From Candidatus Sysuimicrobium tengchongense (GTDB taxonomy: Bacteria > Sysuimicrobiota > Sysuimicrobiia > Sysuimicrobiales > Sysuimicrobiaceae), in contig JAVKGW010000001.1 of the NCBI GenBank assembly GCA_031460175.1, positions 403,021-467,020 of the forward strand: 64,000 nt of DNA. The letters are read 5' to 3'. The notes under the pieces were generated by a model. That model made no database searches. It had not been told where the DNA came from and saw only the letters and a program-made list of their open reading frames with translations. A program made the translations under genes and the position numbers. Position 1 is the first letter of the stretch. Each line of letters opens with the position of its first letter. Below, in pieces: positions 21,330-63,238 of this stretch.

Positions 21330-23090
21330 GTGTGGACCCGGCGTACGCTGGAGGAAGTGCAGGCCCTGATGCAGGTGGCGCGGGGAGAGCGGCCCGCGGA
21401 CCTTGCCCTGGTGGGCGGGCGGGTGCTGCTCGTGCAGTCGGGGGAGGTGTTGCCCGCGCACGTGGCGGTGGCCGGACGGCGCATCGCCTACGTGGGTCCC
21501 TCCACGGACTTCATCGGACCGAAGACGAAGGTGGTGGACTGCGCGGGGAAGGTGATCGTGCCGGGGTATGTGGAGCCCCACACGCACCCCACCCACATGA
21601 TCACCCCGGGGGAGTTCGCCCGCATGGTGTTGCGCACGGGCACCACCACCCTGGTGGCGGACACCCTGGCGGTCCTCGCCCTCGCGGATCCGGGCCTGTG
21701 GGGGGAGCTGCTGGAGACCCTGCATCGGCTGCCCGTCCAGTACCTGTGGTTCCTGCGGTTCCAGCGGCCCACCCGATCCGCGGGATCCGAACGGTTCGAG
21801 CTGGACCTGCTGGAGACCGTGCTCCACCTGCCCTCCGTGGTGGCGGTGGGGGAGTTCACCCGGTGGACCGAGCTCTATCGGGGAGAGGAGGGTCTCCTGC
21901 GCAAGCTCGTGCGGGTCCGGCGGATGGGCAAACGGGCGGAGGGACACCTGCCCGGAGTCCCCTACGACCGGGTGCAGGTCCTCGTGGCCGCGGGGCTCAG
22001 CAGCGACCACGAACCCATCACCCCGGAGGAGGCGTGGGACCGGCTGCGCAGCGGCCTGTATGTCATGCTGCGCCACTCCTCCCTCCGCCGCGACCTCCCC
22101 GCCCTCGCGGAGGTCGCGAGGCGGGCAGGTCCGGCCTTCGGACGGTTGATGCTGACCGCGGACGGCTCGGACGTGGCCTACGTCGTGCGCCACGGATACT
22201 TGGATCACCTCCTCCGGGTGGCCATGGAAAGCGGCGTTCCGCCCCCCGCGGCCTATGCCCTAGCCACCCTCAACCCCGCCACCTACTACGGGCTCGACGA
22301 GGAGTTCGGCATGGTGGCTCCAGGACGGCTCGCGGACCTGTTGGTGCTCCCTTCTCTGGAGAACCCCACGCCGGAGCGGGTCATCGTCCGGGGCCAGGTG
22401 GCGGTGGAGGAGGGAGAGGTCCGCGTGGTGTTCCCCCCGCTCGACTGGGCCCGGTACTTCCCGCCTCGGTTTCGGGCGGAGTGGATCCCGCAGCCGGAGT
22501 GGTTCACGTTCCCCGCACCGGGCCCGGAGGTTTCCCTGGTGGGCATGGAGCTGGACAACGCGGTGATCACCCGCCGCCGGGAATGGAACCTGCCCGTGCG
22601 GGGAGGGCGCGCGGTGTTCCCGGAGGGCGTGGTCCTGGCCGTTCTGCTGGACCACGGGGGACGGTGGATGGTCCGGGCACCCCTCGGAAACTTCGCCCGC
22701 CGGCTCGGGGGACTCGCCTGCACCTTCAATGTCGCGCATGAGGTCCTGGTGTGCGGCCAGCAGCCGGAGGACATGGCCCTGGCGGTTCGGCGCGTCCAGG
22801 CCATGGGCGGTGGGGTCGCCCTCGTGGAAGGAGGAGCGGTGCGGCTCGAACTGCCCCTCCCCTTCGGTGGCTTGATGAGCTCGCTCCCCTACGAGGAGGT
22901 GGCCGCGCGGATCGAGCGGCTCACGGAGCTCCTCCGGGCCCGCGGATACCCGCACGACGACCTCTTCTACACCCTTTTGTTCCTGCCCTCCGACGGACTC
23001 CCCCGGGTCCGGCTCATGGCGGAGGGCCTGTGGGACGTGCGGGCCAATCGCCTGTTGCGCCCGCCCGAGTTCCTCGGTTTCGGAGGTTAA
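21330..23090 (+). CDS. Adenine deaminase-like amidohydrolase
   Basis: 587 aa with a metal-binding HTHPTH motif, the Ade family length, and the conserved C-terminal domain. Confidence 0.7.
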   Translation: MWTRRTLEEVQALMQVARGERPADLALVGGRVLLVQSGEVLPAHVAVAGRRIAYVGPSTDFIGPKTKVVDCAGKVIVPGYVEPHTHPTHMITPGEFARMVLRTGTTTLVADTLAVLALADPGLWGELLETLHRLPVQYLWFLRFQRPTRSAGSERFELDLLETVLHLPSVVAVGEFTRWTELYRGEEGLLRKLVRVRRMGKRAEGHLPGVPYDRVQVLVAAGLSSDHEPITPEEAWDRLRSGLYVMLRHSSLRRDLPALAEVARRAGPAFGRLMLTADGSDVAYVVRHGYLDHLLRVAMESGVPPPAAYALATLNPATYYGLDEEFGMVAPGRLADLLVLPSLENPTPERVIVRGQVAVEEGEVRVVFPPLDWARYFPPRFRAEWIPQPEWFTFPAPGPEVSLVGMELDNAVITRRREWNLPVRGGRAVFPEGVVLAVLLDHGGRWMVRAPLGNFARRLGGLACTFNVAHEVLVCGQQPEDMALAVRRVQAMGGGVALVEGGAVRLELPLPFGGLMSSLPYEEVAARIERLTELLRARGYPHDDLFYTLLFLPSDGLPRVRLMAEGLWDVRANRLLRPPEFLGFGG

Positions 23091-23944
23091 CCCAGGGGCG
23101 CGGGGATCCGGACGCGCTCGGCTCCGCTGTAGACGTTGAAGCGATCCTCCCGCAGGAACCCCACCAGGGTCACCCCGAAGGCCCTGGCCACCTCCGCCGC
23201 GAGGCTGCTGGGGGCGGAGACCGCGCAGAAGATGGGGATTCCGGCCACCACTGCCTTCTGCACCAGTTCGAAGCTGGCCCGTCCGCTCACCAGCACGATG
23301 TGCTCCCCAAGCGGCAGCTTCCCCTCCAGGAACGCCCACCCCAGGAGCTTGTCCATGGCGTTGTGCCGTCCCACATCCTCCCGGAGGGCCAGAAGCCTCC
23401 CTCCTCCTTCGAAGAGGGCCGCGGCGTGTAACCCCCCGGTGAGGGCAAAGAGGCTCTGGGCCGCCCGCAGCTGCTCGGGCAGCCCACGCAGCACCGCGGC
23501 CTCCACCGCGGGACCCGGACCGACCTGGCACCCCCGGAGCCGCAGGGCCTCCAGGCTCGCCTTCCCGCACACCCCGCAGGCGCTCGTGGTGTAGAAGTGA
23601 CGCTCCAGGGACGGCAACTCCGGGAGGGCATCCGTGCGGAGCTCCACGTTCACCACGTTGTACCGCTGTTCGGGATCCAGGTCCGGGTCCACGCAGTAGG
23701 AGATGCGGGCGATCTCCTCCCGGTGCGTCACGATCCCTTCCGTGAAGAGGAACCCCGCGGCCAGCTCGAAGTCGTGGCCGGGGGTGCGCATGGTCACCGC
23801 CACGGTTTTCCGGTGCGACCCCGCGACCAGGCGGATCTCCATGGGCTCCTCGGTGGCCAGGAGATCCCCGCGCACCTCCACCCGGTCCCCCCGTACCACC
23901 CGCACCTGCGTGCGGACCTTTGAAGCAGGCCGCCCCCCACCCAT
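23087..23944 (-). CDS. fdhD: Formate dehydrogenase accessory sulfurtransferase FdhD
   Basis: Active-site loop SACGVCGK, NAMDKL and the family length. Confidence 0.8.
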   Translation of the reverse strand: MGGGRPASKVRTQVRVVRGDRVEVRGDLLATEEPMEIRLVAGSHRKTVAVTMRTPGHDFELAAGFLFTEGIVTHREEIARISYCVDPDLDPEQRYNVVNVELRTDALPELPSLERHFYTTSACGVCGKASLEALRLRGCQVGPGPAVEAAVLRGLPEQLRAAQSLFALTGGLHAAALFEGGGRLLALREDVGRHNAMDKLLGWAFLEGKLPLGEHIVLVSGRASFELVQKAVVAGIPIFCAVSAPSSLAAEVARAFGVTLVGFLREDRFNVYSGAERVRIPAPLG

Positions 23945-24099
23945 GACGCCACCTCCTCGGCCTCCCCGGATCCACGCATCCCCCTGCAGCATGCCCTTCC
24001 GCGGGCGGCCGCGCAAGACTTCCCCCTCGACGCCGCGGCCCGGGTGCCCTAGCATCCGCATGAGGGCGGGACGCGCCGAGACCGAGACGGAGGAGCGGC

Positions 24100-24504
24100 A
24101 TGGTGACCTTTCTCTTCCACGCGCCGGTCACGGACTTCCCCGTGGCCCTGTGGCTCACGAGCCTGCTGTTCGACGCGCTGGGGTGGTGGCGGCCCCGGGA
24201 GGTGTACCGGACCATGGCCCTGTGGCTCGTGGGGTTGGGACTCCTGTCCGCGGCGGTGGCCATCGGCACCGCGTTTTACGACTACGCGCGCCTGGTGCGG
24301 GAAGGGGTGGGCACGGCCTTTCTGCAGCGCCACGCCACGCACAGCCTCCTCGCCTACGCGGCCACCGCCACCTACCTCGTGAGTTTCCTGCTCCGCTGGA
24401 GAGCCCCGCAGGCCCGGGCCGCCATCGGCGGGCTCGCGGTCGTAGGCGCGCTCCTCGTCGGCCTTGCCGGGTACCTCGGCGGCGAGCTCCGGAAGGTGAT
24501 GTGA
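24100..24504 (+). CDS. DUF2231-like small membrane protein
   Basis: 134 aa with 4 TM helices. Confidence 0.5.
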   Translation: MVTFLFHAPVTDFPVALWLTSLLFDALGWWRPREVYRTMALWLVGLGLLSAAVAIGTAFYDYARLVREGVGTAFLQRHATHSLLAYAATATYLVSFLLRWRAPQARAAIGGLAVVGALLVGLAGYLGGELRKVM

Positions 24505-24508
24505 GGAA

Positions 24509-25966
24509 ATGCACCGCCTGATCCGGATCCCCGCCCCGTATCCGCCCAGCCCCGCGGCGGTGCTGGAAGCCTTCCCGAGGGAGCCAGGCCGGGTCCTGCT
24601 CGAGAGCGCAGGAGGCCCGGAGGACCTGAGCGTCCGCTCCTTCGTCACCGCCCGGCCTTTTGCGCTCCTCACGGGCCGCGGGGGCCGCTACCTCCTCCGC
24701 ACCGACCGGGCGAGGTCCACCCTCACGGGTTGCCCGTTCACCGCGCTCCAGCGGACGCTCTGGTCCTTCGGCGCGGATCTCCCGCGCGGACCCCTGGGGC
24801 TTATGGAGCCGCTCGCGGACTGGCCCACCTTCGCGGGTGGCGGGATCGGCTACCTCAGCTACGACCTCGGCCGCCAGGTGGAGCGCCTCCCCGCCCTCGC
24901 CCTCGATGACCTCGGCCTTCCGGAGCTGTGGATCGCGTGGTACGACGCCGCGGTGGTCCTCGATCACCGTCGGCGGGAGGCCGCGGTGGTGGGGCGGGTG
25001 CTGCCGGGTCGGGAACAGGCGGTGGCGGACCACGTGCGGTTTCTCCTGCGGGCCCTGGAGGTCGCGGCGGAACGCCCGGATCAGAATTCCGGGCTCCTCC
25101 CGGAGCGCTTCGCCCTGCGGTCCACCTTCACCCGGGAGGGATACGAGGCCGCGGTGCGGCGGGCCATCGCGTACATCCGGGCGGGCGACATCTTCCAGGT
25201 GAACCTCAGCCAGCGGTTCTGCGCCCCCTGGCCCGGGGATCCGTGGCTTCTGTACCGCCGGCTCCGTCGCACCAACCCCGCGCCCTTCGCCGCCTTTCTC
25301 GACGGCGGCACGTGGGCCGTGGTGAGCGCTTCGCCGGAGCGCTTCCTGCAGGTGGACCCCCGTACCCGGCGGGTGGAGACCCGGCCCATCAAGGGCACGC
25401 GGCCCCGCGGCCGGACTCCGGAGGAGGACGCCCGGTATGCCGAGAGGCTCCTCCAGAGCGAGAAGGATCTCGCGGAACTGGTGATGATCGTGGACCTGGA
25501 GCGCAACGATCTGGGTCGGGTCTGCACGTACGGGACCGTTCGGGTGCCGGAGCTGCGGCGCCTGGAGGCCTATCCCACGGTTTGGCACACGGTGGCGGTG
25601 GTGGAGGGGAGGCTCCGGCCCGGCGTAGGGCCGGCGGAGCTCCTGCGGGCCACGTTCCCGGGCGGGTCCATCACGGGAGCTCCCAAGGTCCGGGCCATGG
25701 AGATCATCGAGGAGCTGGAGCCCGTACGCCGCGGGGTGTACACGGGCGCCATCGGGTGGTTCGGATGGGACGGTGCCCTGGACCTGAGCATCGCCATCCG
25801 CACCTTCGTGGTGACCGGCGGGGAGGCGTACTTCCACGCGGGCGGGGGGATCGTGGCGGACTCCGATCCCGCCGCGGAGTACGAGGAGACCCTCGCCAAG
25901 GCCCTGGGGCTTGTGCGGGCTCTGCGGGAGGGGGTCGAAGTCCCTGCGGTTCGTGTGGCTCAGTAG
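24509..25966 (+). CDS. pabB: Aminodeoxychorismate synthase component I (chorismate-binding enzyme)
   Basis: Chorismate-binding domain motifs (PIKGTRPRG, FPGGSITGAPK, GGGIVADSDP). Adjacent to a class IV aminotransferase. Confidence 0.85.
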   Translation: MHRLIRIPAPYPPSPAAVLEAFPREPGRVLLESAGGPEDLSVRSFVTARPFALLTGRGGRYLLRTDRARSTLTGCPFTALQRTLWSFGADLPRGPLGLMEPLADWPTFAGGGIGYLSYDLGRQVERLPALALDDLGLPELWIAWYDAAVVLDHRRREAAVVGRVLPGREQAVADHVRFLLRALEVAAERPDQNSGLLPERFALRSTFTREGYEAAVRRAIAYIRAGDIFQVNLSQRFCAPWPGDPWLLYRRLRRTNPAPFAAFLDGGTWAVVSASPERFLQVDPRTRRVETRPIKGTRPRGRTPEEDARYAERLLQSEKDLAELVMIVDLERNDLGRVCTYGTVRVPELRRLEAYPTVWHTVAVVEGRLRPGVGPAELLRATFPGGSITGAPKVRAMEIIEELEPVRRGVYTGAIGWFGWDGALDLSIAIRTFVVTGGEAYFHAGGGIVADSDPAAEYEETLAKALGLVRALREGVEVPAVRVAQ

Positions 25967-26786
25967 CGCGGGCGGGTTGGTGGAGGCCAGGCGGGCCTGG
26001 ATCCCGGCCACCGACCGGGGGTTCCTGCTGGGAGATGGCCTCTTCGAGACCACCCGGGTGTACCGGGGACGTGCGCCCCTGCTCGCGTACCACCTCCGGA
26101 GGCTGCATGCAGGCGCGGAGCGACTCGGGATCCCCATCCCGTGGGACCTCGGGTCCGCGGCCGCGGAACTTCTGCGGCACGTTCCCGCGGAGCACGGGGT
26201 GCTGCGGATCACCCTCACCCGGGGCCCGGGGCCCCGGGGCTACGATCCGCCCGCCACGGCGCACCCCACGGCCCTCCTCCAGGTGGATCCCCTGGAAGCC
26301 GCGGCAGAGCCCGTGGACGCGTGGCTCTCCTCCCTCCGCCGCGATCCCCGCGCTCCCACCGCCGGGCTCAAGACCACGAGCGCCCTCCCGCTCGTTCTGG
26401 CCCGCCAGGAAGCCCGGGCCGCGGGGTGCGGGGAGGCACTGCTGTTGGATACGGAGGGGAACCTCGCGGAGGGGACCGCCACCAACCTCTTCTGGGTGCG
26501 GGAAGGAATCCTCTACACGCCCGCCCTCGCCACCGGGTGCCTCCCCGGCATTGCCCGGGCCCTGGTCCTGGAACTGTCCCGGGTTCACGGAATCCCCGTG
26601 CGGGAGGTCACCGCTCCCGTGGAGGCCCTCGAGGGGGCCTCCGAGGCCTTCCTCACCAACGCGGTGCGCCTCCTCCTCCCCCTCCGGTCCGTGCGCCTTC
26701 CCGGCGGTGCCCGCATCTCGCTCCCCGCTGGCCCCCTCACCGAGACCTTCCGGGCCGCGCTGTGGAACCGGTTTGTTGAGGGCTGA
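25954..26786 (+). CDS. pabC: Aminodeoxychorismate lyase / class IV aminotransferase
   Basis: Fold-type IV PLP enzyme motifs (GLFETTRV, TNLFWV). The GTG start overlaps the pabB stop by 13 nt. Confidence 0.7.
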
Positions 26787-26788
26787 GG

Positions 26789-27676
26789 CTACGGGGTCTT
26801 CATCTCCGGCTTCGGATCCACCCCCGCGTGCACGTAGGTCCAGCCGAAGCGGCCCTTGATGCACAGGAACCCGCGGGTGATGGGATCGTCGGGCGGTGCC
26901 GTCACCTTCACGATGCGGTCGTCCTGCACGTGGAGCTCCAGGTTGCAGCCCACCCCGCAGTAGGGGCACACGGTGGTCACCACCCGCTGCCGCGTCTCGT
27001 CCCAGGTGCCCGCCCGCCGCATCTCGAACTGGGTCTTCGGGACCAGGGCTTCCGTGGGGCAGACCGCCACACAGTTCCCGCAGAACACGCAGGCGCTCTC
27101 GGGAAGCGGCAGGTCAAACCCGGGGTCGATGCGGGCCTCGAGCCCCCTTCCGGCCACCGCGATGGCGAAGCTGTTCTGCACTTCCTCCCCGCACACCCGC
27201 ACGCACCGGTAGCAGAGGATGCACCGATCCAGGTCCCGCACGTACAGCTCGTTGTCCACCTTGGGAGCCCGCGGGCGCGGAGGGCCCTCCGGTCGGAAGC
27301 GCGCCCACCGCTCAGGCCGGGCTCCGTACTCCTCCGCGTAGCGCTGCACGTCCGGGGCAAGGCTCGTGTCCACGGAGCTCTGCAGGAGTTCTGCCACCAT
27401 GCGGCGGCTGAGCCGCACGCGCGGGGTGTCCGTGCGCACCCGCATCCCGGGCTCGACCTTCCGGATGCAGGCCGGCACCAGGGTGCGGGAGCCCTCGACC
27501 TCCACCACGCAGATCCGGCAGACCCCGATGGGCTCCAGGACGGGGTGGTAGCAGAGGGTGGGGACGTCCTTGCCCAAGGCCCGGATGGCCTCTAGAAGCG
27601 TGGACCCTTCGGGGACCGCGACGGTCTGCCCGTCCACCTCGAGCTGCACGAGCGCAGCCTGCACCTCGGTGGTCAT
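26789..27676 (-). CDS. Formate dehydrogenase alpha subunit, N-terminal Fe-S fragment
   Basis: Contains a 2Fe-2S ferredoxin domain, two 4Fe-4S sites (CILCYRCVRVC, CVFCGNCVAVCP), and the Mo-bisPGD 4Fe-4S motif CPYCGVGC. It ends at ...CIKGRFGWTYVH, where the catalytic fragment's sequence (RLTYPLVR...) picks up, by alignment to E. coli FdhF. Its ATG overlaps the upstream stop as ATGA. Confidence 0.8.
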   Translation of the reverse strand: MTTEVQAALVQLEVDGQTVAVPEGSTLLEAIRALGKDVPTLCYHPVLEPIGVCRICVVEVEGSRTLVPACIRKVEPGMRVRTDTPRVRLSRRMVAELLQSSVDTSLAPDVQRYAEEYGARPERWARFRPEGPPRPRAPKVDNELYVRDLDRCILCYRCVRVCGEEVQNSFAIAVAGRGLEARIDPGFDLPLPESACVFCGNCVAVCPTEALVPKTQFEMRRAGTWDETRQRVVTTVCPYCGVGCNLELHVQDDRIVKVTAPPDDPITRGFLCIKGRFGWTYVHAGVDPKPEMKTP

Positions 27677-29571
27677 GGTGTCCCGACTCCTCCGGCCCGG
27701 TCTTGGAACCGCAGACTGCTCAGGACCGCGTTCGGCGCGAGCTGCCCCAGCCCGCAGATGGAGGCGTCCCGCATCACCTGGGCGAGGTCCTCCAACAGGG
27801 CCCGCAGCTCCGGGTCCGCCCGGCCGCCCCTGCGCCGCATCTCGGCCACCAGCTCCAGCTGCCGCTGGGTCCCCACCCGGCAGGGGACGCACTGGCCACA
27901 GGACTCCTCCCGGAAGAACCGTGCGATGCGCTCCACCACCGCCCACAGGTCCGCCCGCTCGTCGAAGACCACGAGGGCCCCCGAGCCCAAGGTGGCTCCG
28001 ATGGCCTGGAGGGTCTCCACCGCCAGCGGGGTGTCGAGTTCCTCGGGCCGGAGGAAGGTCCCCGCCGCGCCGCCGCAGAGCACCGCCCGGATCCGCCGGC
28101 CCCCGGGCACACCTCCCGCGAGCTCCTCCAGGACCGTGCGGATGGGGGTGCCGAAGGTGACCTCATAGACCCCGGGACGGGCCACGTGCCCGCTCACGCA
28201 GACCAGCTTGGTGCCCTTGGAGCGCTCGGTCCCCAACCCCGCGTACCACGCACCGCCCCGCACGAGGATGGAAGGGACCGAGGCCAGGGTCTCCACGTTG
28301 TTGATGACCGTGGGACGTCGGAACAACCCCACCTGGGTGGGAAACGGCGGCCGGTTCCTGGGCTCGCCCCGGAACCCCTCGATGGAATTGAAGAGGGCCG
28401 TCTCCTCCCCGCAGACGTAGGCCCCGGCCCCACGGCGGACCTCGATGTCGAAGGAGAACTCCGTCCCCAGGATCCGCTCCCCCAGATATCCCGCGGCCCG
28501 GGCCTCCTCCAGGGCCTGCATGAGGGTCCGGAACGCTTCCGGATACTCCCCCCGGACGTAGATGTACCCCCGCTCGGCCCCGACCGCGTATCCCGCGATG
28601 GTGAGCCCCTCGATCACCGCGAAGGGGTCCTTCTCGAGGAGGACCCGGTCCTTGAAGGTCCCGGGCTCGCTCTCGTCCGCGTTGCAGACCACGTACCGGG
28701 GAGGTGCTTCCCGGGCCGCCAGGGCCCACTTCCGGCCCGTGGGGAAGGCGGCCCCGCCCCGCCCGATGAGCCCCGAGCGCTCCACCTCCTGGATGGTGGC
28801 CTCCGGCCCGATCTCGAGGGCCCGTTCCAGCCCCCGATATCCGCCGGCCGCCCGGTAGTCCTCCAGGGACGTGGGCACCACCCGGTCGCACCGGGCCAGG
28901 AGCAGGGGCGTCCCTTCTCCTCTCCATCCCAGGTAAGTGGGAGGGGACGCGGGTCCGGCCGGACCTTCCTCTCCCCGCAACCACGCCCGCACCCGCTCCT
29001 CCAGCGCCTCCGGGGTGAGCCCCAGGAGCACGCCCTCTCCCACCAGGGCCGCCGCGCCCCGGTCGCACTGGCCGAGGCAGGGCGAGCGGCTCCAGCCCAG
29101 GGGCGGGACGGAACCCACGGGCGATGCCGGCCCGTGGGGAAGGGGGCTTTGGGCGTACGTCTCTCCGTGGGCGGGCTCGTGGACGGGGCTCCCAAGGTGC
29201 CGGTAGAGGGTCTGTGCGAGCGCTTCCGCGCCGCGGAGCATGCAGGCGATGTCGTCGCAGAGGTGGATCACCCGGGGTGGCCGGGGCTCGGTGGCGAGGA
29301 GCGCGTAGAAGCTCGCCACCCCGTACACCTCCGCCACCGGCAGCCCCAGCTCCCGGCAGATGGCTGCAGCCGCCGGGTAGGAGATCCAGCCCCGTGCCTC
29401 CTGCACGGCCCACAGGGCCGGAAGCAGCAGGTCCCGGCGGCCCACGCGCTCCTCCGGCCGCAGGTGCCCCCAGACCCGCTCCAGGGCCTGCTGCTCTTCA
29501 GGGGTAGGCGGAGGTACGTGCTCCAGCCGCTGGAGCTCCACGCCCCATCCGCGGAGCGGGGCCGCGCTCAT
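27673..29571 (-). CDS. NAD(H)-binding formate dehydrogenase subunit, NuoE-like + NuoF-like fusion
   Basis: N-terminal half is a NuoE/thioredoxin-like 2Fe-2S domain (CDDIACMLRGA...C..C). C-terminal half is NuoF (GRGGAAFPTGRKW, ESCGQCVPCR). ATGA overlap at both ends. The first ~530 aa of the 1161-aa track ORF are spurious. Confidence 0.85.
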   Translation of the reverse strand: MSAAPLRGWGVELQRLEHVPPPTPEEQQALERVWGHLRPEERVGRRDLLLPALWAVQEARGWISYPAAAAICRELGLPVAEVYGVASFYALLATEPRPPRVIHLCDDIACMLRGAEALAQTLYRHLGSPVHEPAHGETYAQSPLPHGPASPVGSVPPLGWSRSPCLGQCDRGAAALVGEGVLLGLTPEALEERVRAWLRGEEGPAGPASPPTYLGWRGEGTPLLLARCDRVVPTSLEDYRAAGGYRGLERALEIGPEATIQEVERSGLIGRGGAAFPTGRKWALAAREAPPRYVVCNADESEPGTFKDRVLLEKDPFAVIEGLTIAGYAVGAERGYIYVRGEYPEAFRTLMQALEEARAAGYLGERILGTEFSFDIEVRRGAGAYVCGEETALFNSIEGFRGEPRNRPPFPTQVGLFRRPTVINNVETLASVPSILVRGGAWYAGLGTERSKGTKLVCVSGHVARPGVYEVTFGTPIRTVLEELAGGVPGGRRIRAVLCGGAAGTFLRPEELDTPLAVETLQAIGATLGSGALVVFDERADLWAVVERIARFFREESCGQCVPCRVGTQRQLELVAEMRRRGGRADPELRALLEDLAQVMRDASICGLGQLAPNAVLSSLRFQDRAGGVGTP

Positions 29572-31553
29572 CGGGCGATCTCCCTCCCGACCCCCACCGC
29601 GACCCGCTGCGTTCGGAGGGGCTCCACCCGGACCGCGGTGGCCTTGAACTCCGCGGTCCCGGACTTGGGATCCGCGGCGTCCACGGTCAGGAAGTTGGTC
29701 GGGGTCTTCTCGGGGAAGTGCAGGGTCATGAAGCACATCCCGGGCGGGACCGTGGACTCCACCCAGGCGGTCGCCTCCACGGACCCTCTCCGGGAAAAGA
29801 CCCGCACGCGGTCCCCGGAGGAGATGCCGTAACGCCTGGCGTCCGCGGGGTTGAGCACCAGGTACTCTTCCTGGGGGACGGGCGTTCTGTACAGGGCCGT
29901 CTGCACGCCCGTGTTGAAGAAGTAGAGCCTGCGCCCGGTGGTGAGCAAGAGCGGGTAGTCCTCGTTCACCTCGTCCACGGGCGGTTCGTAGTGGGTGGGC
30001 ATGAAGGGCGCCCGGGGGCCTTCCACCGGACGCTTCCACAGCCGGCTGTGCAGGAACTGCTCCCCGGGGTGGTCCTCGCTCGGGCAGGGCCACTGGATCC
30101 CGCCGAGCTCCTCCAGGCGGCGGTAACTCATGCCCCGGTGCAGCGGCGAGAGCGCCCGCACCTCGTTCCACACCGCCTCCGCATCGGGGTAGTTCCAGTC
30201 CCGTCCGAGCCGCCGGGCGAGCTGCTGGAGGATCCAGAGGTCGTCCTTCGCTTCCCCGGGAGGCTCGAGGGCCTTGCGGACGCGCTGCACCCGCCGCTCG
30301 CTGTTGGTAACGGTCCCCTCGGACTCGCACCAGGCCGCGGCCGCGGGAAAGACCACGTCCGCGAGCTCGCCCGTGGCGGTGAGAAAGATGTCCTGCACCA
30401 CCAGGAACTCGAGCTCTTGGAACAGCCGGAGGATGCGGGTGGCGTTGGCGTCCGAGCGCACGGGGTTCTCGCCGATGACGTACAGGCCCCGGAGGAGGCC
30501 CTTCTCCATCGCGTCGTACATGGCCGTCAGGTGCCAGCCCGCCTTGGGCGGGATGGAGCAGTCCCAGGCCCGCTCGAACCGGGCCCGCACCTCCGGGTCC
30601 TCCACGTTCTGGAACCCCACGAGCCGGTTGGGGAGGGCCCCCATGTCGCCTCCCCCCTGGACGTTGTTCTGGCCCCGCAGGGGGTTGAGGCCGGACCCGT
30701 AGCGGCCCACGTGGCCCGTGAGCAGCGCGAGGTTGATCAAACTGAAGACGGTGTCCACCGCGTTGTGGTGCTCCGTGATCCCCAGGGTCCAGCAGATCAT
30801 GGCGCGGGGGGCAGTGGCGTACTCCCGGGCCGTGGCCGCGATGAGCTCCCGGGGGACTCCCGTGACGGCCTCCGCGTATTCCAGGGTGTAGGGTTCCACC
30901 GCCTCCCGGTACCGCTCGAATCCCTCCGTGGCCTCCCGGACGAACTCCTCGTTGACGAGCCCCTCCTCGATGATCAGCCGGCCCATGGCGTTCGCGAGGG
31001 CGATGTCCGTGCCCACCCGCACGGGGAGCCACCGGTGGGCGAAGGCCACGCTCGAGGTTCGCCGGGGATCGATGACCACAAGGCGCGCGCCGTTCCGCAC
31101 GCCCTTGAGCATGTGCAAGAACATCACCGGGTGGGTCTCCCGGGCATTGGACCCCCACAGGAGGATGAGGTCCGTCTCCTCCATCTCCCGGTAGGAGTTG
31201 GTCCCTCCGCCCGCGCCGAACACCGCCGCCAGACCGGCGACGCTGGGGGCGTGTCAGGTGCGGTTGCAGCTATCGACGTTGTTCGAGCCCATCACCTGGC
31301 GCGCGAACTTCCCGGCCAGGTAGTTGAGCTCGTTGGTGGACTTGGAGCAGCTGAACAGCCCGAAGCCCTGGCCTCCGTACCGCTCCCGGATGCGCCGCAG
31401 CCCTTCGGCGGCCCGGTCCAGGGCCTCCTCCCAACTGGCCCGGACCAGCCGTCCGTCCTTGCGCACCAGGGGGTAGGTGAGGCGCACGTCCGGGCCCGGG
31501 AGATCTCCCCGATCGTTCCCCAGGGGGACCCTCGGAGTTGCCACCGCGCTCAC
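29568..31553 (-). CDS. Formate dehydrogenase alpha subunit, Mo-bisPGD catalytic fragment, selenocysteine-containing (in-frame TGA at 31254-31256)
   Basis: Reading through the TGA gives ...GSNNVDSCNRT-U-HAPSVAGL..., which matches E. coli FdhF around U140 (NNVDCCARV-U-HGPSVAGL). The rest is collinear with FdhF through the C-terminal cap domain. GTG start ~31544-31553 after GGAGAGGGGG. Confidence 0.8.
31224..31253 (-). promoter_or_regulatory. Bacterial SECIS hairpin immediately 3' of the Sec UGA
   Basis: UGA-CACGCCCCCAG-CGUCGCC-GGUCU-GGCGGCG forms a 7-bp stem with a GGUCU apical loop. Spacing and loop resemble the fdhF SECIS (UGACACGGCCCAUCGGUUGCAGGUCUGCAC). Confidence 0.6.
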
Positions 31554-31621: not shown

Positions 31622-32974
31622 TTATAGACCGCCGAAAGCCAGGCCCGCGAGGATCCCTGCCAGGAACACCGTCCCCGCAAGGAACGCACAGGGCCGGTAG
31701 TCCCCGAGGGCCATCCCCACCACCGCGAGGCTCGGCAGGCTCACCGCGGGCAGGGTGAGCAGCAGCGCGGCCGCAGGCCCCGTGATTCCTTGCTGGATGA
31801 GCGGCCTCGCCACCGCGAGCTCGGTCCAGGTGGGGATCATGAGCAGGGTTCCCGCCGCCGCGGCTTTGAGGGTGCTCGGGAGGTCGTTGCGGCCCGCGAA
31901 GGAGACGATCACGGGGGCGAGCGCCCCCGTGAGGACCGCGGCCAGGAAGAGCACGGGGATCGCGACCCGGGCCAGCCGCCACGAGGTCCGGAGCCAGGCC
32001 GTCACCAGGGTGGCGGGGGTGCGGGCATCGCCCTCCGCGAGCCCCTGCTCCAGCGCGAAAAGGCGCGCGAGACGGTCCATCCAGGGACTTGGACGGTAAG
32101 CGACCACGCGCCCGGAAGTCCGAAGGACCCGCAAGACGAGGTGCGTCCCGAACACCGCGAGCACCACCCCGCCGAGGATGCGCAGCAGCGCGTACGGCGC
32201 GGGCAGTAGGGCGGTGGCGAGCACGAGGGTGGTGAGGTTCAGCATGGGGGAAGCCACGAGGAAGGAGAGCAGGGCGTCCAGACTTGTGCCCGCCCGGGAA
32301 AGGCTCGCGCCCACCGGGCCCGCGCAGCAGGAGCAAAAAGGATACGGGAGGGCGAGGAGGGAGCCGGCCACGTGGGCCCGCAATCCCCCGGCGCGCAGCA
32401 TCCCCTCCAGCCACTCGAATGCTCCGGCGCGCAGCAGCACGAGCAGCAGCCCCCCGATCAGGATCCCCAGGGTGGTGGCGTGCCATGTCACCAGCAGGTA
32501 GTTCACCGCCTCCGCCACCGGCCGCGCCCAGCCCGGGAAGGACGGGACCGGGAACGCGAAACTCACCCCCAGATGCCCCGCGTGGGCGATGCGCGCCGCC
32601 TGCACGCCCCGGTACACGAAGAGATCCACCACCAGCGCCACGAGCAGCACCCCCGCGGTGACGTTCCGGGCCCGCGGGAGATCCACGCCCGCGGCCAGGG
32701 CCCTGCGCTCTCCACGGGCGAGGGCCCGATGCAACCCCACGCTCCCGAGGAGTGCCGCAGAAAGCAGCAGGAGGTGGATGGGGTGGAAGTAGAGGATCGC
32801 GGAGGGGGAACCCACCTTGGTGTAAAGGCTTGGGGGAAGGAGAAACCCCCGCCGCAGATCCACCACGGTGAACAGCAAAAGTCCCACGAACCCCAGGAAC
32901 ACCCCGAGAATCAGGGAGTACCGGGATGCGACGGGCCGCCCCTTCGCGTAGGAACCGGCCTCCACGGACGCCAT
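31622..32974 (-). CDS. DUF318/UPF0718-type permease with CxxCC motif
   Basis: 450 aa with ~10 TM helices and a PFCSCCAGP motif. Co-directional, 68 bp upstream of the FDH catalytic gene. Confidence 0.6.
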   Translation of the reverse strand: MASVEAGSYAKGRPVASRYSLILGVFLGFVGLLLFTVVDLRRGFLLPPSLYTKVGSPSAILYFHPIHLLLLSAALLGSVGLHRALARGERRALAAGVDLPRARNVTAGVLLVALVVDLFVYRGVQAARIAHAGHLGVSFAFPVPSFPGWARPVAEAVNYLLVTWHATTLGILIGGLLLVLLRAGAFEWLEGMLRAGGLRAHVAGSLLALPYPFCSCCAGPVGASLSRAGTSLDALLSFLVASPMLNLTTLVLATALLPAPYALLRILGGVVLAVFGTHLVLRVLRTSGRVVAYRPSPWMDRLARLFALEQGLAEGDARTPATLVTAWLRTSWRLARVAIPVLFLAAVLTGALAPVIVSFAGRNDLPSTLKAAAAGTLLMIPTWTELAVARPLIQQGITGPAAALLLTLPAVSLPSLAVVGMALGDYRPCAFLAGTVFLAGILAGLAFGGL

Positions 32975-33079: not shown

Positions 33080-33961
33080 ATGCTGGACTCCCTGCGGATC
33101 TTTCGGCTGGTGGCCACCTCCCGGAGCTTCACGGAGGCGGCCCGCCAGGCAGCCCTCACCCGCCCCGCGGTGAGCCAGCACATCCGGCGGCTGGAGCGCC
33201 TGTTCGGCACCCGGCTGCTGGTGCGCACCACCCGCCGGGTAGAGCTCACGGAGGCCGGCCGGGTGCTGCTGGAGCATGCGGAGAGGGTTCTGGAGGAGGT
33301 GGCTCGGCTGGAGAGCGCCATGAGGGATCTGAGCCCCCGGCGCACGGCCCCGCTCCTCGTAGGCGCGAGCACCCTTCCCGGCGAGTACCTGCTTCCGGGG
33401 GCCCTTCTGGCGTTCCGGGACCGGTTCCCCGAGACCGAGGTGCGGGTGTGGATCGGGGACACGGAGGCGGTGGTGGGGTGGGTCCGGACCGGGCAGGTGG
33501 AGCTGGGGTTCGTGGGCCAGCCCCCGGCAGGACCTGAGCTCGTGGTAGAGCCGGTGGTGGAGGACGAGATCGTGCTGCTGCTCCCTCCGGGCTACACCGC
33601 GCCGGATCCGCTCGACGTGGAGGCCCTTACCCGGATCCCCCTCGTGCTCCGGGAGCCGGGCTCCGCGACCCGGGCAACCCTGCTGGCCGCGCTCGAGCGG
33701 GCGGGCGTAAGGCCCGACCGGCTCCGGGTGGTGGGGCAGCTGGGGAGCCCGGAGGCGGTGAAGGCCGCGGTGCGGGCCGGGGTGGGTGCCGCGTTCCTCT
33801 CCCGGTTCTGTCTCCGTCCGGGGGAGGGGCCCGCGGTGCGGGTACAGGGGCTTTCCCTGCGGCGGTGGGTGTGCGCGTGCTGGCACAGGGCCCGTCCCCC
33901 GGATCGCTTTGCCCAAGCGCTCATCGATTTCCTACGGGCGTCCGCGGTTCCGGAGGGCTGA
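33080..33961 (+). CDS. LysR-family transcriptional regulator
   Basis: N-terminal LysR HTH (FTEAARQAALTRPAVSQHIRRLE) plus a substrate-binding domain. Divergent from the permease/FDH genes across an AT-rich 105-bp region. Confidence 0.85.
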   Translation: MLDSLRIFRLVATSRSFTEAARQAALTRPAVSQHIRRLERLFGTRLLVRTTRRVELTEAGRVLLEHAERVLEEVARLESAMRDLSPRRTAPLLVGASTLPGEYLLPGALLAFRDRFPETEVRVWIGDTEAVVGWVRTGQVELGFVGQPPAGPELVVEPVVEDEIVLLLPPGYTAPDPLDVEALTRIPLVLREPGSATRATLLAALERAGVRPDRLRVVGQLGSPEAVKAAVRAGVGAAFLSRFCLRPGEGPAVRVQGLSLRRWVCACWHRARPPDRFAQALIDFLRASAVPEG

Positions 33962-35568: not shown

Positions 35569-35643
35569 GGGGACGTAGCTCAGCGGGAGAGCACCTGGTT
35601 TGCAACCAGGGGGTCGCCGGTTCGAATCCGGTCGTCTCCACCA
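35569..35643 (+). tRNA. tRNA-Ala(UGC)
   Basis: GGGGACGTAGCTCAGCGGGAGAGCACCTGGTTTGCAACCAGGGGGTCGCCGGTTCGAATCCGGTCGTCTCCACCA, with the G3:U70 Ala identity pair, anticodon TGC and an encoded CCA. It lies 17 nt downstream of the pruA stop. Confidence 0.9.
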
Positions 35644-35674
35644 GCCGAAACCCGCACGCGACCGGAGGGTTCCC

Positions 35675-36055
35675 GTGATCCGAGGCCTGGACAACATCGG
35701 GGTGGCTGTCTCCGAGGTGCGCCGGGCGGTCTCCTTCTACCAGCTGCTGGGGTTCCAGCCCGACTACGTCACGGAGGACTCCGCCTTCCTCCGGGCAGAG
35801 GGCGTGGCGCTGTACCTGTTCCGCACGGAGGCTCCTCCTCCGCCCTCCCGCTCCTTTGACCTCACGGGAAATCCCCTGGGGCTGGACCACCTGAGCTTCC
35901 GGGTGGACGACGTGGACGCCGCCTGCGCCGCTCTCCGGGATCTCGGGGTCACCATCGAGCGGCCGCCCCGGGACTACGAGTGGGGTGCCCGGGCCGCCTG
36001 CCTGCGGGATCCGGACGGGAACTGCATCTGGCTGCTGCAGCGCCGGTCCCCGTAG
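35675..36055 (+). CDS. VOC/glyoxalase-family protein
   Basis: 126 aa from the GTG after a GGAGGG Shine-Dalgarno. Glyoxalase fold motifs (GLDNIGVAV, DHLSFRVDD). The ORF-track start at 35600 lies inside the tRNA and is spurious. Confidence 0.65.
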   Translation: MIRGLDNIGVAVSEVRRAVSFYQLLGFQPDYVTEDSAFLRAEGVALYLFRTEAPPPPSRSFDLTGNPLGLDHLSFRVDDVDAACAALRDLGVTIERPPRDYEWGARAACLRDPDGNCIWLLQRRSP

Positions 36056-43165: not shown

Positions 43166-44548
43166 TCAGTCCTCCCAGAAGCCCGGGACAACGCCCTCCC
43201 GCTGCAGGATCCGCCGCAGTTCCAACAGGGCGGTGTAGGTGGGGAGTACGAGAAGGGTCCCCCCTTCGGGAACGCCCTGGGCCGCCTCCCGCAGGGCCCG
43301 GGCAAGATCCGGTTCCACCCGTAGCCGGTCTTCAGGGATCCCCGCATACCGGAGGCGCAGGGCCAGATCCGCGGCCCGGAGGCCGCTCGCGACGACGGGG
43401 AGTGGGAGTTCCCGCAGTTCCTCGAAGTCCACGTCCCACAGCCACGAGACGTCCCGCCCGTCCGCGGTCCGGTCGTGGATCGCCACCAGGAGGGCCTCAG
43501 GAGGACGCTGGACCACCATCCGCAGGAGGGCGTTGAACCCCGCGGGGTTCTTCGCCAGGAGGATCTCCAGCGCCACGCCGCGCCACCGCAGCCGCTCCGC
43601 CCGGCCGAAGGCGGGCCGGAACCCCTGCAGGCTCCGCTCCACGGCCCCGCCGGGGACCCCCAGACAGAGCGCGGCTGCGGTGGCCGCGAGGGCGTTGTAC
43701 ACGTTGTACAGGCCCGGAAGGGGAATCCGAACCCGCAGGCGTCCTCCGGGCCAGACCAGGCTCGCTTCCGTCCCCCGCGTGCCGTCCGTTCGGATCGCCT
43801 CCGCGTAAACCGTGGGATCCGGCCGCCGCACCCCACACCGCTCGCACGCGTACCGACCCACGTGGGAGAGGTACACCACCTCGTAGGTGTACGGGGTCCC
43901 GCACCGGTAACAGTAGCGGACGTCCGCGGCGTCCTCCATGGCTCTCAGCCCGCAGCCTTCGTCCTCCACCCCGAAGGGCACCGTGGCCAGCTGCAGGTCC
44001 CGGACCACCGCCGCCACCTGTGGATCGTCCGCGTTGAAGCACACCGTGGCCTCCGGGAGTCCTCGGAGGGCGGCCCGCCACCGGTGCGCCACCGCCTCCA
44101 CCTCACCGTAGCGATCCAGCTGGTCGCGGAACAGGTTCAGGAGGACCACCACCCGGGGCCGCAGGATCGGGATGAGGAGCGGAAAGGCCGCCTCATCCAC
44201 CTCGAACACCCCCACCTCCCCCCGCACCTGGCCCCGTAAGTTCGCGGCCTCCACCAGGGCGGAGGCGATGCCCGAGGGGAGGTTCGCCCCCGCCCGGTTG
44301 TGCACCGAACGCAGACCCGCCTCCCGGAGCATCTCCGCCACCAGGCGGGCCGTGGTGGTCTTCCCGTTGGTGCCGCTCACCACCACCGCACCCCGCGGGA
44401 GCTGGGAGGCGAGGGTCTCGAGGATCCCCGGATAAACCCGCCGGGCGAGCCGTCCAGGGAGCGTGGTCCCCCCGCCCGCCCGCAGGCCACGACTCAGGCG
44501 GGCCGTGGATTTGGCCAGGAGGAGGGCAAGGCGCAGGCGTACGGTCAC
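43166..44548 (-). CDS. murT: Lipid II isoglutaminyl synthase Mur-ligase subunit MurT
   Basis: Mur ligase P-loop (VSGTNGKTTT), the MurT-specific Cys4 ribbon (CYRCGTPY...CERCG) and the DUF1727 C-terminus. Confidence 0.85.
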   Translation of the reverse strand: MTVRLRLALLLAKSTARLSRGLRAGGGTTLPGRLARRVYPGILETLASQLPRGAVVVSGTNGKTTTARLVAEMLREAGLRSVHNRAGANLPSGIASALVEAANLRGQVRGEVGVFEVDEAAFPLLIPILRPRVVVLLNLFRDQLDRYGEVEAVAHRWRAALRGLPEATVCFNADDPQVAAVVRDLQLATVPFGVEDEGCGLRAMEDAADVRYCYRCGTPYTYEVVYLSHVGRYACERCGVRRPDPTVYAEAIRTDGTRGTEASLVWPGGRLRVRIPLPGLYNVYNALAATAAALCLGVPGGAVERSLQGFRPAFGRAERLRWRGVALEILLAKNPAGFNALLRMVVQRPPEALLVAIHDRTADGRDVSWLWDVDFEELRELPLPVVASGLRAADLALRLRYAGIPEDRLRVEPDLARALREAAQGVPEGGTLLVLPTYTALLELRRILQREGVVPGFWED

Positions 44549-44586
44549 CCAAGCCCCATCCTACCAGAGGACGGAGCCCCGCGACC

Positions 44587-45393
44587 TCAGTAGGGACGGC
44601 GGGCGCCTACGAAACGCGCCCGGTAGTAGCCATCCTGCAGGGAGTCAACCCGAACCCGCCCTCCCGCGGAGGAGGCGTGGATGAAGGAGCCCCCGCCCAG
44701 GTAGATCCCCACGTGGGAGGGTCCGGGGCGGTACGTGGTGAAGAAAACGAGATCCCCCGGCTCCAGCTCGGAGAGCGAGACGGGGCGCCCTACCCCGAAC
44801 ATCTCGAAGGAGGTGCGGGGAAGTGGGATTCCGAACCGCTGGAACATGGCGTAGACGAATCCGGAGCAATCGAACCCCCCGGCACCCGTGCCGCCCCATC
44901 GGTAAGGCACCCCCAGGAACCGTCGGGCGAAGACCGCCAGCACCGTTCCCCGCGAAGAGGTGACCTGCCGGACCCGGGGACCGGCAGTGGAAGAGGCGGG
45001 CACCCTTAACCGCTGCCCCACCCGCAGGACTCCCTCCACCGGGATCCCGTTCAGGGCCGCGAGCTGCTGGGGGCTTGTTCTGTACCGGCGGGCAAGACGC
45101 CAGAGGGTGTCCCCAGGCTGGACCTCGTACACCTCCTCCCGCTGGACCGCTTCCTCATCGGCCCGCCCGGGGATCCGCAGCACCTGCCCGGGCCGGAGGA
45201 CGTCTGGATCTTCCAGCCCGTTTGCCTCCACCAGGTCCCGCACGCTGACTCCGTAGCGGGCCGCGATCCGGGTGAGGGTGTCTCCCGGCTGCACGGTGTA
45301 CGAGGAACCTTGCGCGAAGACCCGGGATGGACCCAGGAGAACCAAGCACAGGAAGGCCATCGCGGCCACGGCCTTCGGCCAGCCCATCCTCAT
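44587..45393 (-). CDS. Peptidoglycan DL-endopeptidase (signal peptide + 2x LysM + NlpC/P60)
   Basis: Two LysM repeats (YTVQPGDTLTRIAARYGVSV..., YEVQPGDTLWRLARRY...) and NlpC/P60 catalytic Cys in DCSGFV, with His downstream. Confidence 0.8.
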   Translation of the reverse strand: MRMGWPKAVAAMAFLCLVLLGPSRVFAQGSSYTVQPGDTLTRIAARYGVSVRDLVEANGLEDPDVLRPGQVLRIPGRADEEAVQREEVYEVQPGDTLWRLARRYRTSPQQLAALNGIPVEGVLRVGQRLRVPASSTAGPRVRQVTSSRGTVLAVFARRFLGVPYRWGGTGAGGFDCSGFVYAMFQRFGIPLPRTSFEMFGVGRPVSLSELEPGDLVFFTTYRPGPSHVGIYLGGGSFIHASSAGGRVRVDSLQDGYYRARFVGARRPY

Positions 45394-45586
45394 CCCTCCC
45401 CCGGGGATCGAAGACCCCGCCCACGCGGGCCCATAGACGTTTATCAGGGTTCGCCCTGAGGAGGAGGGATCCTCCGTCAATGGGCAAGGCAATCCATAAA
45501 ATTTTCGGAAGACCAGAGGATAACACGAGGGGCGGGGAAAACCAATTTTATGGAAGATTCAGGGAGCCGGTGGTTTCGGAGATGAA

Positions 45587-45617
45587 CACAGGCCGGGAGG
45601 CCCTCTCCCGGCCTGTG
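45587..45617 (-). terminator. Stem-loop (13-bp stem) downstream of the BFN nuclease gene
   Basis: cacaggccgggag-gccct-ctcccggcctgtg. The flank on the gene's sense (minus) strand is only moderately T-rich. Confidence 0.35.
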
Positions 45618-45639
45618 TTCGCGAATCAAGTGGGCCCAG

Positions 45640-46113
45640 CTAGTGGAGGGAGCGCTTGAAGTCGCTGGGCTTAACGTTCTCGATGAACCGCCGCCACTCC
45701 TCCATCTCCTGGTCCTGATCCTCCTCCTTCTTGAGGGGGATGGCGTGGGCGGCGACCTTCTCGTCCACGAAGATGGGGGCGTTCATCCGCAGGGCGAGGG
45801 CGATGGCATCGCTGGGCCGGGAGTCGATGGCGTTCTCCCTCCCGTCCCGCACGAGGTGGATCTCCGCGTAGTAGGTCTGATCCCGGACGTCCGTGACCAC
45901 CACCCGCTTCACGGAGACGTCCATGCTCTGGAGGATGTTGCGCAAGAGGTCGTGGGTCATGGGGCGAGGTGGGGTGATCCCCTGCAGCTGCAGGGCGATG
46001 GCCTGGGCTTCCGCGGGACCCACCCAGATGGGGAGGGCCAGCCGCTCCTCCGCGTCCGTGAGCAGGACCACGGGGTTCATCTGGTGATCCATGGCGACGC
46101 CCTTCACCTTCAT
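45640..46113 (-). CDS. Bifunctional nuclease (BFN/DUF151) domain protein
   Basis: Family motifs (PVVLLTDAEERLALPIWVGPAEAQAIALQL) plus an acidic C-terminal tail. Confidence 0.7.
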   Translation of the reverse strand: MKVKGVAMDHQMNPVVLLTDAEERLALPIWVGPAEAQAIALQLQGITPPRPMTHDLLRNILQSMDVSVKRVVVTDVRDQTYYAEIHLVRDGRENAIDSRPSDAIALALRMNAPIFVDEKVAAHAIPLKKEEDQDQEMEEWRRFIENVKPSDFKRSLH

Positions 46114-46161
46114 CCAGATCACGGTTCCCCCCTCCTCCGCTCTTAAGCCGATTATACCACC

Positions 46162-48434: not shown

Positions 48435-48436
48435 GT

Positions 48437-50098: not shown

Positions 50099-50277
50099 GG
50101 CTTCCCCTAACAGAAAGCTTCGGCTTTCCGTCCCCCTTCTTGAATGTCCCCAAAACACGCGGGCCCAGACGGAGGGGAAGGACTCCGCTGGGCCCGTTGG
50201 GTTTCTCCGACCACCGCGCGCCCGCGGTGGTCCCTCCCACGCCGCCCGGCCGGCGGCTTGCCGCAAGTATACGCAGC

Positions 50278-50313
50278 CCCCCTTCCCCCTGTCAAAAGGG
50301 GGAAGGGGGCGGA
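50278..50313. repeat. 12-bp perfect inverted repeat with 8-nt spacer
   Basis: cccccttccccc-tgtcaaaa-gggggaaggggg lies in the 400-bp divergent region between prkA and the HTH gene. Confidence 0.5.
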
Positions 50314-50506
50314 ATTCCCCTGTTCGCGCCGTGCGCGGGAGCCCGGAAGCGTCCGCGGGACGAGACCCACGGCCACGGGCATCGCCTCACCTCAGGGACC
50401 CCCTGCATCCGCAGGCGAGCCGTACGTATAACACAATTGTGAATTCGATTCCGAGAATGATACGATGGAGTCACACGGGAAACGGTTCTCCTTTTGGAGG
50501 TGCGCC

Positions 50507-61873: not shown

Positions 61874-61886
61874 CTTCTCCCCTCCC

Positions 61887-62904: not shown

Positions 62905-63238
62905 CACCGCCCCTCGAAGACACAAAACCCGGCCCACTGGTCTGGCCGGGTTCGCCACTGGCTCCGGACGGCACCAGGCGACCACGTCCGCACCGCCCTT
63001 CCTCGCCTCCAGACCTACCCTGATCCCCCAGGCGTCAGAGCAACTCCTGTGCCACCTTTGACCCCGGTCCCGCGGGGGCCTGCTCCCCGAACCTCCCCTT
63101 GCCCTTTATATGCCCCAAACCTCCGAATTCCCGCTCGCGAATCCCCCATTGGTTATGAAAATTCCTTCGATCGGAGGATGGGCAGCCCGGCGGGAGGGCT
63201 GGTTTAGTCAGGTTAATTCCGGGCCGGAGGTGCGATCC

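Follow-up and report, generated by a model that had tools for sequence, protein, structure and literature searches.

A split and permuted alpha subunit in a widespread family of predicted NAD-linked selenocysteine formate dehydrogenases, described from Candidatus Sysuimicrobium tengchongense

The formate dehydrogenase locus

Here we describe a formate dehydrogenase (FDH) locus in a stretch of 64,000 nucleotides from Candidatus Sysuimicrobium tengchongense (assembly GCA_031460175.1, contig JAVKGW010000001.1, positions 403,021 to 467,020 of the forward strand; hereafter the window, whose own numbering is used throughout). Two genes encode the alpha subunit of the predicted enzyme—one the catalytic half (alpha-C), with the domains for a molybdenum or tungsten bis(pyranopterin guanine dinucleotide) cofactor (Mo/W-bisPGD), the other the iron-sulfur half (alpha-N)—and between them lies a gene for the diaphorase subunit, a fusion of NuoE and NuoF (Table 1). 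On the minus strand the operon therefore reads alpha-C, then NuoE-NuoF, then alpha-N. An earlier description made from the DNA letters alone (the sequence-only reading) had proposed just this, an alpha subunit divided over two genes in swapped order around NuoE-NuoF with all three genes joined by ATGA overlaps, and both points are borne out by the translations and by reading the junctions, where ATGA stands at 29571-29568 and again at 27676-27673. The alpha-C gene begins with GTG, 5 nt past a GGAG. The G+C content of the window is about 70%, and two longer open reading frames (ORFs) across the operon, 27673..31158 (1161 aa) and 26789..27946 (385 aa), were rejected as genes since they are read-through artefacts of this composition. 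The codon-position G+C of alpha-C is strongly coding-like, with a third-position value (GC3) of 0.94. The layout in the window is confirmed as real and the enzyme genes as intact.

Table 1. Coordinates of the formate dehydrogenase genes and associated features in the window
Feature	Position	Strand	Details
alpha-C, catalytic Mo/W-bisPGD half of FDH alpha	31553..29568	minus	661 codons including UGA; translation
In-frame UGA read as selenocysteine	31256..31254	minus	context CNRT-U-HAPSVAGL
SECIS mini-hairpin	31224..31242	minus	helix +15..+21 / +27..+33 from U of UGA; comparative support
SECIS apical loop GGUCU	31235..31231	minus	+22..+26 from U of UGA
NuoE-NuoF fusion, diaphorase subunit	29571..27673	minus	632 aa; translation
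alpha-N, Fe-S half of FDH alpha	27676..26789	minus	295 aa; translation
FdhD, FDH accessory sulfurtransferase	24061..23087	minus	Pfam FdhD-NarQ 2.8e-67; NCBIfam NF001943, 316 bits vs cut-off 269

The two halves of the alpha subunit

The domain content of alpha-C and alpha-N is that of one alpha chain cut in two. alpha-C matches the Pfam families Molybdopterin (PF00384, 8.9e-74) and Molydop_binding (PF01568, 4.3e-28), and Pfam finds no Fe4S4 domain (PF04879) in it; its score against the NCBIfam model TIGR01591 (Fdh-alpha), 695 bits, exceeds the curated cut-off of 666.25. alpha-N carries Fer2_4, a ferredoxin-type 4Fe-4S dicluster region and Molybdop_Fe4S4 (residues 231-283). It has exactly 16 cysteines, of which four belong to a [2Fe-2S] cluster, eight to two ferredoxin-type [4Fe-4S] clusters and four to the FS0 [4Fe-4S] cluster (C237/C240/C244/C272), and Lys274 of the C-x-K-G motif is present. 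Along the 672 positions of TIGR01591, residues 235-284 of alpha-N occupy positions 1-50 and alpha-C occupies 53-672, so that the two halves are complementary to within two profile positions. The same division appears against R. capsulatus FdsA, where alpha-N 6-282 aligns to residues 21-303 and alpha-C 38-644 to residues 324-932, and against E. coli FdhF, where alpha-C 24-652 aligns to residues 61-694; the earlier statement that the N-terminal fragment stops where the C-terminal one begins holds for all three references.

The homologues are divided in the same place. Among the 120 best alpha-N homologues, 118 are 274-324 aa long with the identical domain set and no Molybdopterin domain, and in an alignment of 12 alpha-N sequences every member stops just past KGRFGW-FV. 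None of the 120 best alpha-C homologues has an Fe4S4 domain. In this alpha-C differs from all FDH chains matched in the PDB, which have the FS0 domain in cis; no example of FS0 in trans was found among the solved structures matched.

The N-terminal modules of HoxU and NuoG, comprising the [2Fe-2S] and two ferredoxin-type [4Fe-4S] clusters, match alpha-N over about residues 10-216, and the sub-threshold matches of alpha-N to HoxU (146.6 bits), NuoG and the N-termini of [FeFe]-hydrogenases invite a different reading, in which alpha-N would be an independent HoxU/NuoG-N-type protein serving another enzyme and alpha-C would either have no FS0 of its own or use some other partner. That HoxU score, however, compares with a cut-off of 333 bits for NF005745, and the HoxU alignments end ahead of the molybdopterin-type Fe4S4 domain (NF005745 covers alpha-N 10-216, and the 242-aa HoxU 5xf9_B covers 13-212), leaving out the domain and conserved Lys that form the very piece alpha-C is without. 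Moreover, alpha-N adjoins alpha-C and NuoEF in nearly all of the loci described below and co-diverges with both. We consider an independent HoxU-like protein very improbable. The homology comparison that the sequence-only reading had suggested for this purpose thus favors its own view that alpha-N is the missing N-terminus of alpha-C, not a spare ferredoxin.

The NuoE-NuoF diaphorase subunit

The fusion subunit matches 2Fe-2S_thioredx, Complex1_51K, SLBB and NADH_4Fe-4S in Pfam, and in NCBIfam it matches nuoF_fam (469 bits) and NuoE/FdsG-type models. The [2Fe-2S] ligands of the NuoE part (C105/C110/C165/C169) and the [4Fe-4S] ligands of the NuoF part (C558/C561/C564/C606) are intact, and the motifs for flavin mononucleotide (FMN) and NAD(H) read GRGGAAFPTG and ADESEPGTFKD. 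The chain ends at residue 632, 11 residues past the NADH_4Fe-4S domain; it has the two canonical cluster motifs only, with no extra CxxCxxCxxxC motif and no C-terminal ferredoxin-like cluster. Its PDB matches include the FDH beta subunits 6vw7_B and 6tg9_B and the fused 7e5z_B. NuoE and NuoF are fused in every family locus in which both parts were found. The sequence-only reading was right that the two are fused here but went too far in counting the fusion among the unusual features, as it is already known from characterised enzymes, Fdh1B of M. extorquens (PDB 7e5z_B, 572 aa) and HydB of S. aciditrophicus (PMC7311640).

Selenocysteine and its insertion signal

The catalytic triad is retained in alpha-C as selenocysteine (Sec) 100, His101 and Arg293: U100 and H101 align with U140 and H141 of E. 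coli FdhF, and R293 lies within LRGQNNVQG. The best PDB matches of alpha-C include FdhF of the T. kivui hydrogen-dependent CO2 reductase (HDCR; 1.6e-167) as well as E. coli FdhF residues 61-694. Most family loci have Sec, the codon in this column being TGA in 52 and TGC or TGT in 14; the Cys-codon forms among the family loci come from actinomycetes only.

Directly downstream of the UGA lies a selenocysteine insertion sequence (SECIS), a small hairpin whose support is comparative. In all 51 distinct TGA sequences, window included, the loop GGTCT and the adjoining helix base G27 (numbered from the U of UGA) are invariant, and 94% of cells in the helix 15-21/27-33 are paired. The helix is 6-7 bp long and covaries in the TGA-bearing sequences, where the pairs 18-30, 19-29 and 15-33 show compensatory changes. 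Neither its pairing score nor its covariation score was reached in any of 500 column shuffles, and pairing is far poorer when the register is shifted. Where the active-site codon is Cys, these loop codons have drifted (GGC/GGG, TCG), as expected if the SECIS, not the protein, imposes the constraint. G23 and U24 stand in the loop, presumably at the same spacing as in the SECIS of E. coli fdhF. No SECIS match was obtained at Rfam gathering thresholds; a sub-threshold SECIS_3 match spans the UGA at 31201-31259 (20.5 bits vs a cut-off of 63, E 0.016).

Distribution and conservation of gene order

One genome per species was scanned with the alpha-N alignment, which returned 80 loci, and gene order was then scored by tblastn. 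Of the 59 loci that were scorable for all three genes, 58 have the order alpha-C, fused NuoEF, alpha-N; with loci cut by contig ends included, the count is about 70 of the 80. In the one clear exception, locus L082 (Anaerolineales), the genes stand in the canonical order E, F, fused alpha. The hosts belong to at least eight phyla, among them Actinomycetota, Acidobacteriota, Chloroflexota, Planctomycetota, Verrucomicrobiota, Gemmatimonadota, Pseudomonadota (Hyphomicrobiales) and several candidate phyla, and the actinomycetes include Streptomyces (S. scabiei among them), Amycolatopsis, Nonomuraea and Herbidospora. The same order occurs in Limnochorda pilosa (complete genome, AP014924) and in a distant JGI/ENA metagenome lineage, and complete chromosomes that carry it include, besides AP014924, Bryobacterales OZ records and Streptomyces. 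The closest named relatives of the window's FDH proteins are Limnochordia, at 73-78% identity. In Marinactinospora thermotolerans (L084) the order is alpha-C, NuoEF, alpha-N, FdhD, and the source annotation (JGI style) names the three products 'NAD-dependent formate dehydrogenase catalytic subunit', '... flavoprotein subunit' and '... iron-sulfur protein', so that the three-protein composition is already present in annotation vocabularies. A search of related genomes for this gene order, as the sequence-only reading had proposed, is therefore positive in 58 of 59 scorable loci, and the same result removes its suggestion that the architecture is unusual, as it is conserved across at least eight phyla and its products are already named.

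Metagenome-derived sequences may carry indels, and two distant alpha-N-like proteins, P0313/L085 and P0374/L086, did prove to come from frameshifted or nonsense-interrupted fused genes; by the same token, the split and permutation could stem from faulty sequencing or assembly, or the two genes could be what is left of a once-fused alpha in decay. Against this, the alpha-N ORF of family loci always ends 0-21 aa past the Fe4S4 domain, with the 1.9-kb NuoEF gene between the halves, and an identical (100%) alpha-N product is found on four contigs, the longest of 535 kb (from an NCBI metagenome-assembled genome; the protein is labelled 'Armatimonadota bacterium'). Misassembly, which had been named as a possible refutation, is excluded, since complete chromosomes, and about 70 loci spread over many phyla, show the same order. 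Decay is very unlikely because the 16 Cys of alpha-N, the eight cluster Cys of NuoEF and the Sec, His and Arg of alpha-C are all intact, and the GC3 of alpha-C likewise speaks against it. Taken together, we assign the artefact or decay explanation next to no probability.

The junctions are more variable than the order. Those of L. pilosa overlap too, but elsewhere in the family the genes may stand up to about 240 nt apart, and two loci have unrelated genes within the cluster, L043 between alpha-C and NuoEF and L056 between NuoEF and alpha-N. Translational coupling is therefore no defining feature of the family, and the 1:1:1 coupled translation that the sequence-only reading took the overlaps to imply is conjectural. 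The insertion in L043 (3507-4800) consists of a minus-strand ORF pair that by eye looks toxin-antitoxin-like and one further ORF, and that in L056 (5431-6780) holds a 449-aa minus-strand ORF.

Predicted function and mechanism

From these features the product of the locus is very likely a functional metal-dependent FDH, soluble and made of three proteins, in which the oxidation of formate is coupled to the reduction of NAD(P)+. By homology, formate would be oxidised at the Sec-ligated Mo- or W-bisPGD center of alpha-C, the UGA being decoded as Sec through the SelB-type SECIS hairpin, and the electrons would pass by way of conserved Lys274 to the FS0 [4Fe-4S] cluster on a separate polypeptide, alpha-N. 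The two ferredoxin-type [4Fe-4S] clusters of alpha-N would then relay them to the NuoF-type [4Fe-4S] cluster and on to FMN in the fused NuoE-NuoF, where NAD(P)+ would be reduced; as in FdsABG and complex I, the two [2Fe-2S] clusters are expected to stand aside from this route. With FS0 on alpha-N and the Mo domains on alpha-C, the contact between domain I and domains II-III, which lies within one chain in every solved FDH matched, would become an inter-subunit interface.

Several observations weigh against this picture. The minimum free energy fold 3' of the UGA contains the hairpin, but its energy is no better than that of shuffles (z 0.36, at 70% G+C); the thermodynamic test was uninformative in this G+C-rich sequence, and the comparative evidence is used instead. 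No selA, selB, selD or tRNA-Sec lies within the 64-kb window. No biochemical or expression data were found for any family member.

In the PDB the NuoF part finds its best matches in beta subunits of bifurcating hydrogenases (7t2r_B, 7q4v_B, 8a6t_B), and alpha-C is closest to HDCR FdhF; on these grounds the complex could be a bifurcating or confurcating enzyme of the Bfu/HylABC type, a ferredoxin-dependent FDH or a CO2 reductase. Most hosts (Streptomyces, Acidobacteriota, Limnochordia), however, are aerobes or facultative aerobes, which counts against bifurcation. The number of clusters separates non-bifurcating from bifurcating beta subunits (PMC7311640), and the NuoEF protein, with two cluster motifs and an end 11 residues past NADH_4Fe-4S, is without the additional clusters that mark the bifurcating ones. 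We therefore regard these alternatives as improbable, and the enzyme is most likely a formate:NAD(P)+ oxidoreductase that, like FdsABG and Fdh1AB, is non-bifurcating.

A more far-reaching proposal would make the split enzyme a third, mechanistically distinct NAD-linked FDH architecture. alpha-C would then be matured alone—with sulfuration by FdhD, Mo/W-bisPGD insertion and Sec decoding—and would dock through the inter-subunit FS0 interface onto a pre-assembled alpha-N and NuoEF diaphorase, and the position of the Sec gene at the front of the operon would serve translational coupling, such that the diaphorase is made only after UGA read-through. We put this forward as a speculative and rather unlikely extension.

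Comparison with known formate dehydrogenases

The Fds enzymes, FdsGBA(CD) of R. capsulatus and Cupriavidus necator (PDB 6tg9/6tga, 6vw7), have a cofactor chain of the same type: Mo-bisPGD, FS0, ferredoxin-type clusters, the NuoF [4Fe-4S] cluster, FMN and NAD+ are shared, the NuoF part in the window matches FdsB, and FdhD is the equivalent of FdsC. The arrangement of the genes differs. FdsA is a single chain of 958 aa, whereas the window alpha is divided over two genes; FdsG and FdsB have separate genes, whereas their counterparts in the window operon are fused; and the Fds gene order is gamma-beta-alpha, as opposed to alphaC-(gamma-beta)-alphaN. FdsA also contains an extra His/Cys-ligated [4Fe-4S] cluster (HPLDCLTCAANGDC), a NuoG-type cluster without counterpart in alpha-N, which has no PF10588 match and no Cys in the aligned stretch. 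Fds enzymes have Cys at the position of the window enzyme's Sec.

The tungsten FDH Fdh1AB of Methylobacterium extorquens (PDB 7e5z/7vw6) resembles the window enzyme in its beta subunit, likewise a NuoE-NuoF fusion (match 9e-100), and in the N-terminus of Fdh1A, which in the alignment has, like alpha-N, no Cys where the extra NuoG-type cluster would lie. Fdh1A, however, is a single chain of 989 aa, to which alpha-N aligns at 65-340 and alpha-C at 374-983.

The nearest relatives of alpha-C itself are the FdhF-type Sec FDHs, E. coli FdhH (1aa6) and T. kivui HDCR FdhF (7qv7_S), with 562 and 483 bits for the pair, and with these it shares the Sec-His and RGQNNVQG active-site motifs. Unlike alpha-C, FdhF has its FS0 domain in cis (residues 1-60), and it passes electrons to hydrogenase modules instead of a NuoEF diaphorase. 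A precedent for a Mo/W-bisPGD catalytic unit carried on two polypeptides is provided by FwdB and FwdD of formylmethanofuran dehydrogenase, but there the division falls at the C-terminal Molydop_binding domain (domain IV), not at the N-terminal FS0, and the enzyme and its partners differ.

Co-divergence and origin of the split

The three proteins have evolved in step. Across 59 sequences (the window and 58 loci), mean pairwise identity is 0.65-0.66 in all three, and their distance matrices are correlated, with r of 0.83-0.87 and a Mantel p of 0.001. A neighbour-joining tree unites the 58 split alpha-N sequences in a single clade, outside which fall 26 fused representatives and the fused alpha of L082; this separation is consistent with a single origin of the split, followed by wide spread. 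When representatives at 50% identity were searched exhaustively, about two full-length members stood for the split alpha-N family (321 and 287 aa); next below them, at no more than 45% identity, came fused or Sec-truncated alphas.

Rotating the canonical order (E)-(F)-(N-C) cyclically gives C-(E-F)-N. The simplest route that we infer would be one ancient tandem duplication followed by deletions at the ends, or an equivalent rearrangement, with the breakpoint at the boundary between the Fe4S4 and Mo domains, after which the split unit would have spread both vertically and horizontally. Three points tell against leaning on this scheme: the alpha-N tree is a simple neighbour-joining tree without bootstrap, the duplication-deletion origin is a model only, and no intermediate architecture, split and unpermuted, was found. 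Both candidates for such an intermediate were rejected, P0313/L085 for a frameshift in a fused gene (2017-2140) and P0374/L086 for an in-frame TAA in a fused gene (1390-1412), each about 20 aa past the Fe4S4 domain.

These two loci, on metagenome contigs, carry canonical-order fused alphas from which gene callers produce false 'stand-alone' alpha-N proteins. Two other proteins show further arrangements: P0245 (511 aa) has the C-terminal part of NuoF joined directly to an alpha-N module, which suggests a further NuoEF-alphaN fusion variant, and P0243 (1405 aa) has two NuoG/alpha-like modules in tandem.

Significance of the split family

Within a well-known class of enzyme the split FDH stands as an uncharacterised variant, and the copy in the window is an ordinary member of its family. 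The three-protein set is present in hundreds of sequenced actinomycetes; full-text literature searches found no paper on the split alpha or the permuted order, although absence there is no proof, and a study of Limnochordia lists only 'formate dehydrogenase' (PMC11456536). NAD-dependent metal FDHs are studied intensively as reversible catalysts of CO2 reduction, and the split family, common in soil and sediment bacteria including aerobic soil bacteria such as Streptomyces, would be a natural system in which to study the docking of the catalytic module, its maturation and its electron exchange. The Cys-type versions from actinomycetes should be easy to express. The chemistry of the enzyme is expected to be conventional, and its interest lies mainly with researchers of Mo/W enzymes and CO2 reduction and with annotation: gene callers end alpha-C at the UGA, and in records derived from NCBI alpha-N often goes only by the name '2Fe-2S iron-sulfur cluster-binding protein', so the potential for formate oxidation may be missed or miscounted in metagenomes.

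Neighbouring genes and other features of the window

The fdhD gene lies 2.7 kb downstream of the operon on the same strand, with three plus-strand genes in between. Of 83 related loci, 35 have FdhD beside the three FDH genes, often as the next gene after alpha-N. The intervening genes (24064-26786), which converge on alpha-N, encode a DUF2231 membrane protein, a PabB-like chorismate-binding enzyme and a class IV aminotransferase (PabC-like); actinomycete loci instead have fdhD directly after alpha-N.

Immediately upstream of alpha-C and on the same strand is an ArsP_1-family permease gene (32974..31622), beyond which a divergent LysR regulator is encoded on the plus strand (33080..33961). Neither is taken as part of the FDH system: the permease has no match in any related FDH locus, and the LysR matches, found only in seven Streptomyces loci 2-7 kb downstream of alpha-N, are weak (about 33% identity) and distal.

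Elsewhere in the window, SpoVR-like and PrkA genes, whose products are associated with sporulation in Bacillota, lie on the minus strand at 46165-50386, and this region has a G+C content of 0.64-0.68 (44001-50000) compared with about 0.70-0.72 elsewhere. Taken with the Limnochordia relatives of the FDH proteins, the SpoVR-like and PrkA genes give the organism the look of a Limnochordia-type Bacillota, in contrast to the 'Armatimonadota bacterium' label of the identical alpha-N protein. A cyclic di-GMP-II riboswitch aptamer at 62935-63019 on the minus strand (54.5 bits vs the Rfam gathering score of 53.5) stands upstream of minus-strand genes that include one for a DUF4900 protein (59645-61930). 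Finally, a tRNA-Ala(TGC) gene on the plus strand (35569-35643) overlaps the 5' end of a mechanically listed glyoxalase ORF (35579-36055), so that the true start of the glyoxalase gene must be further downstream.

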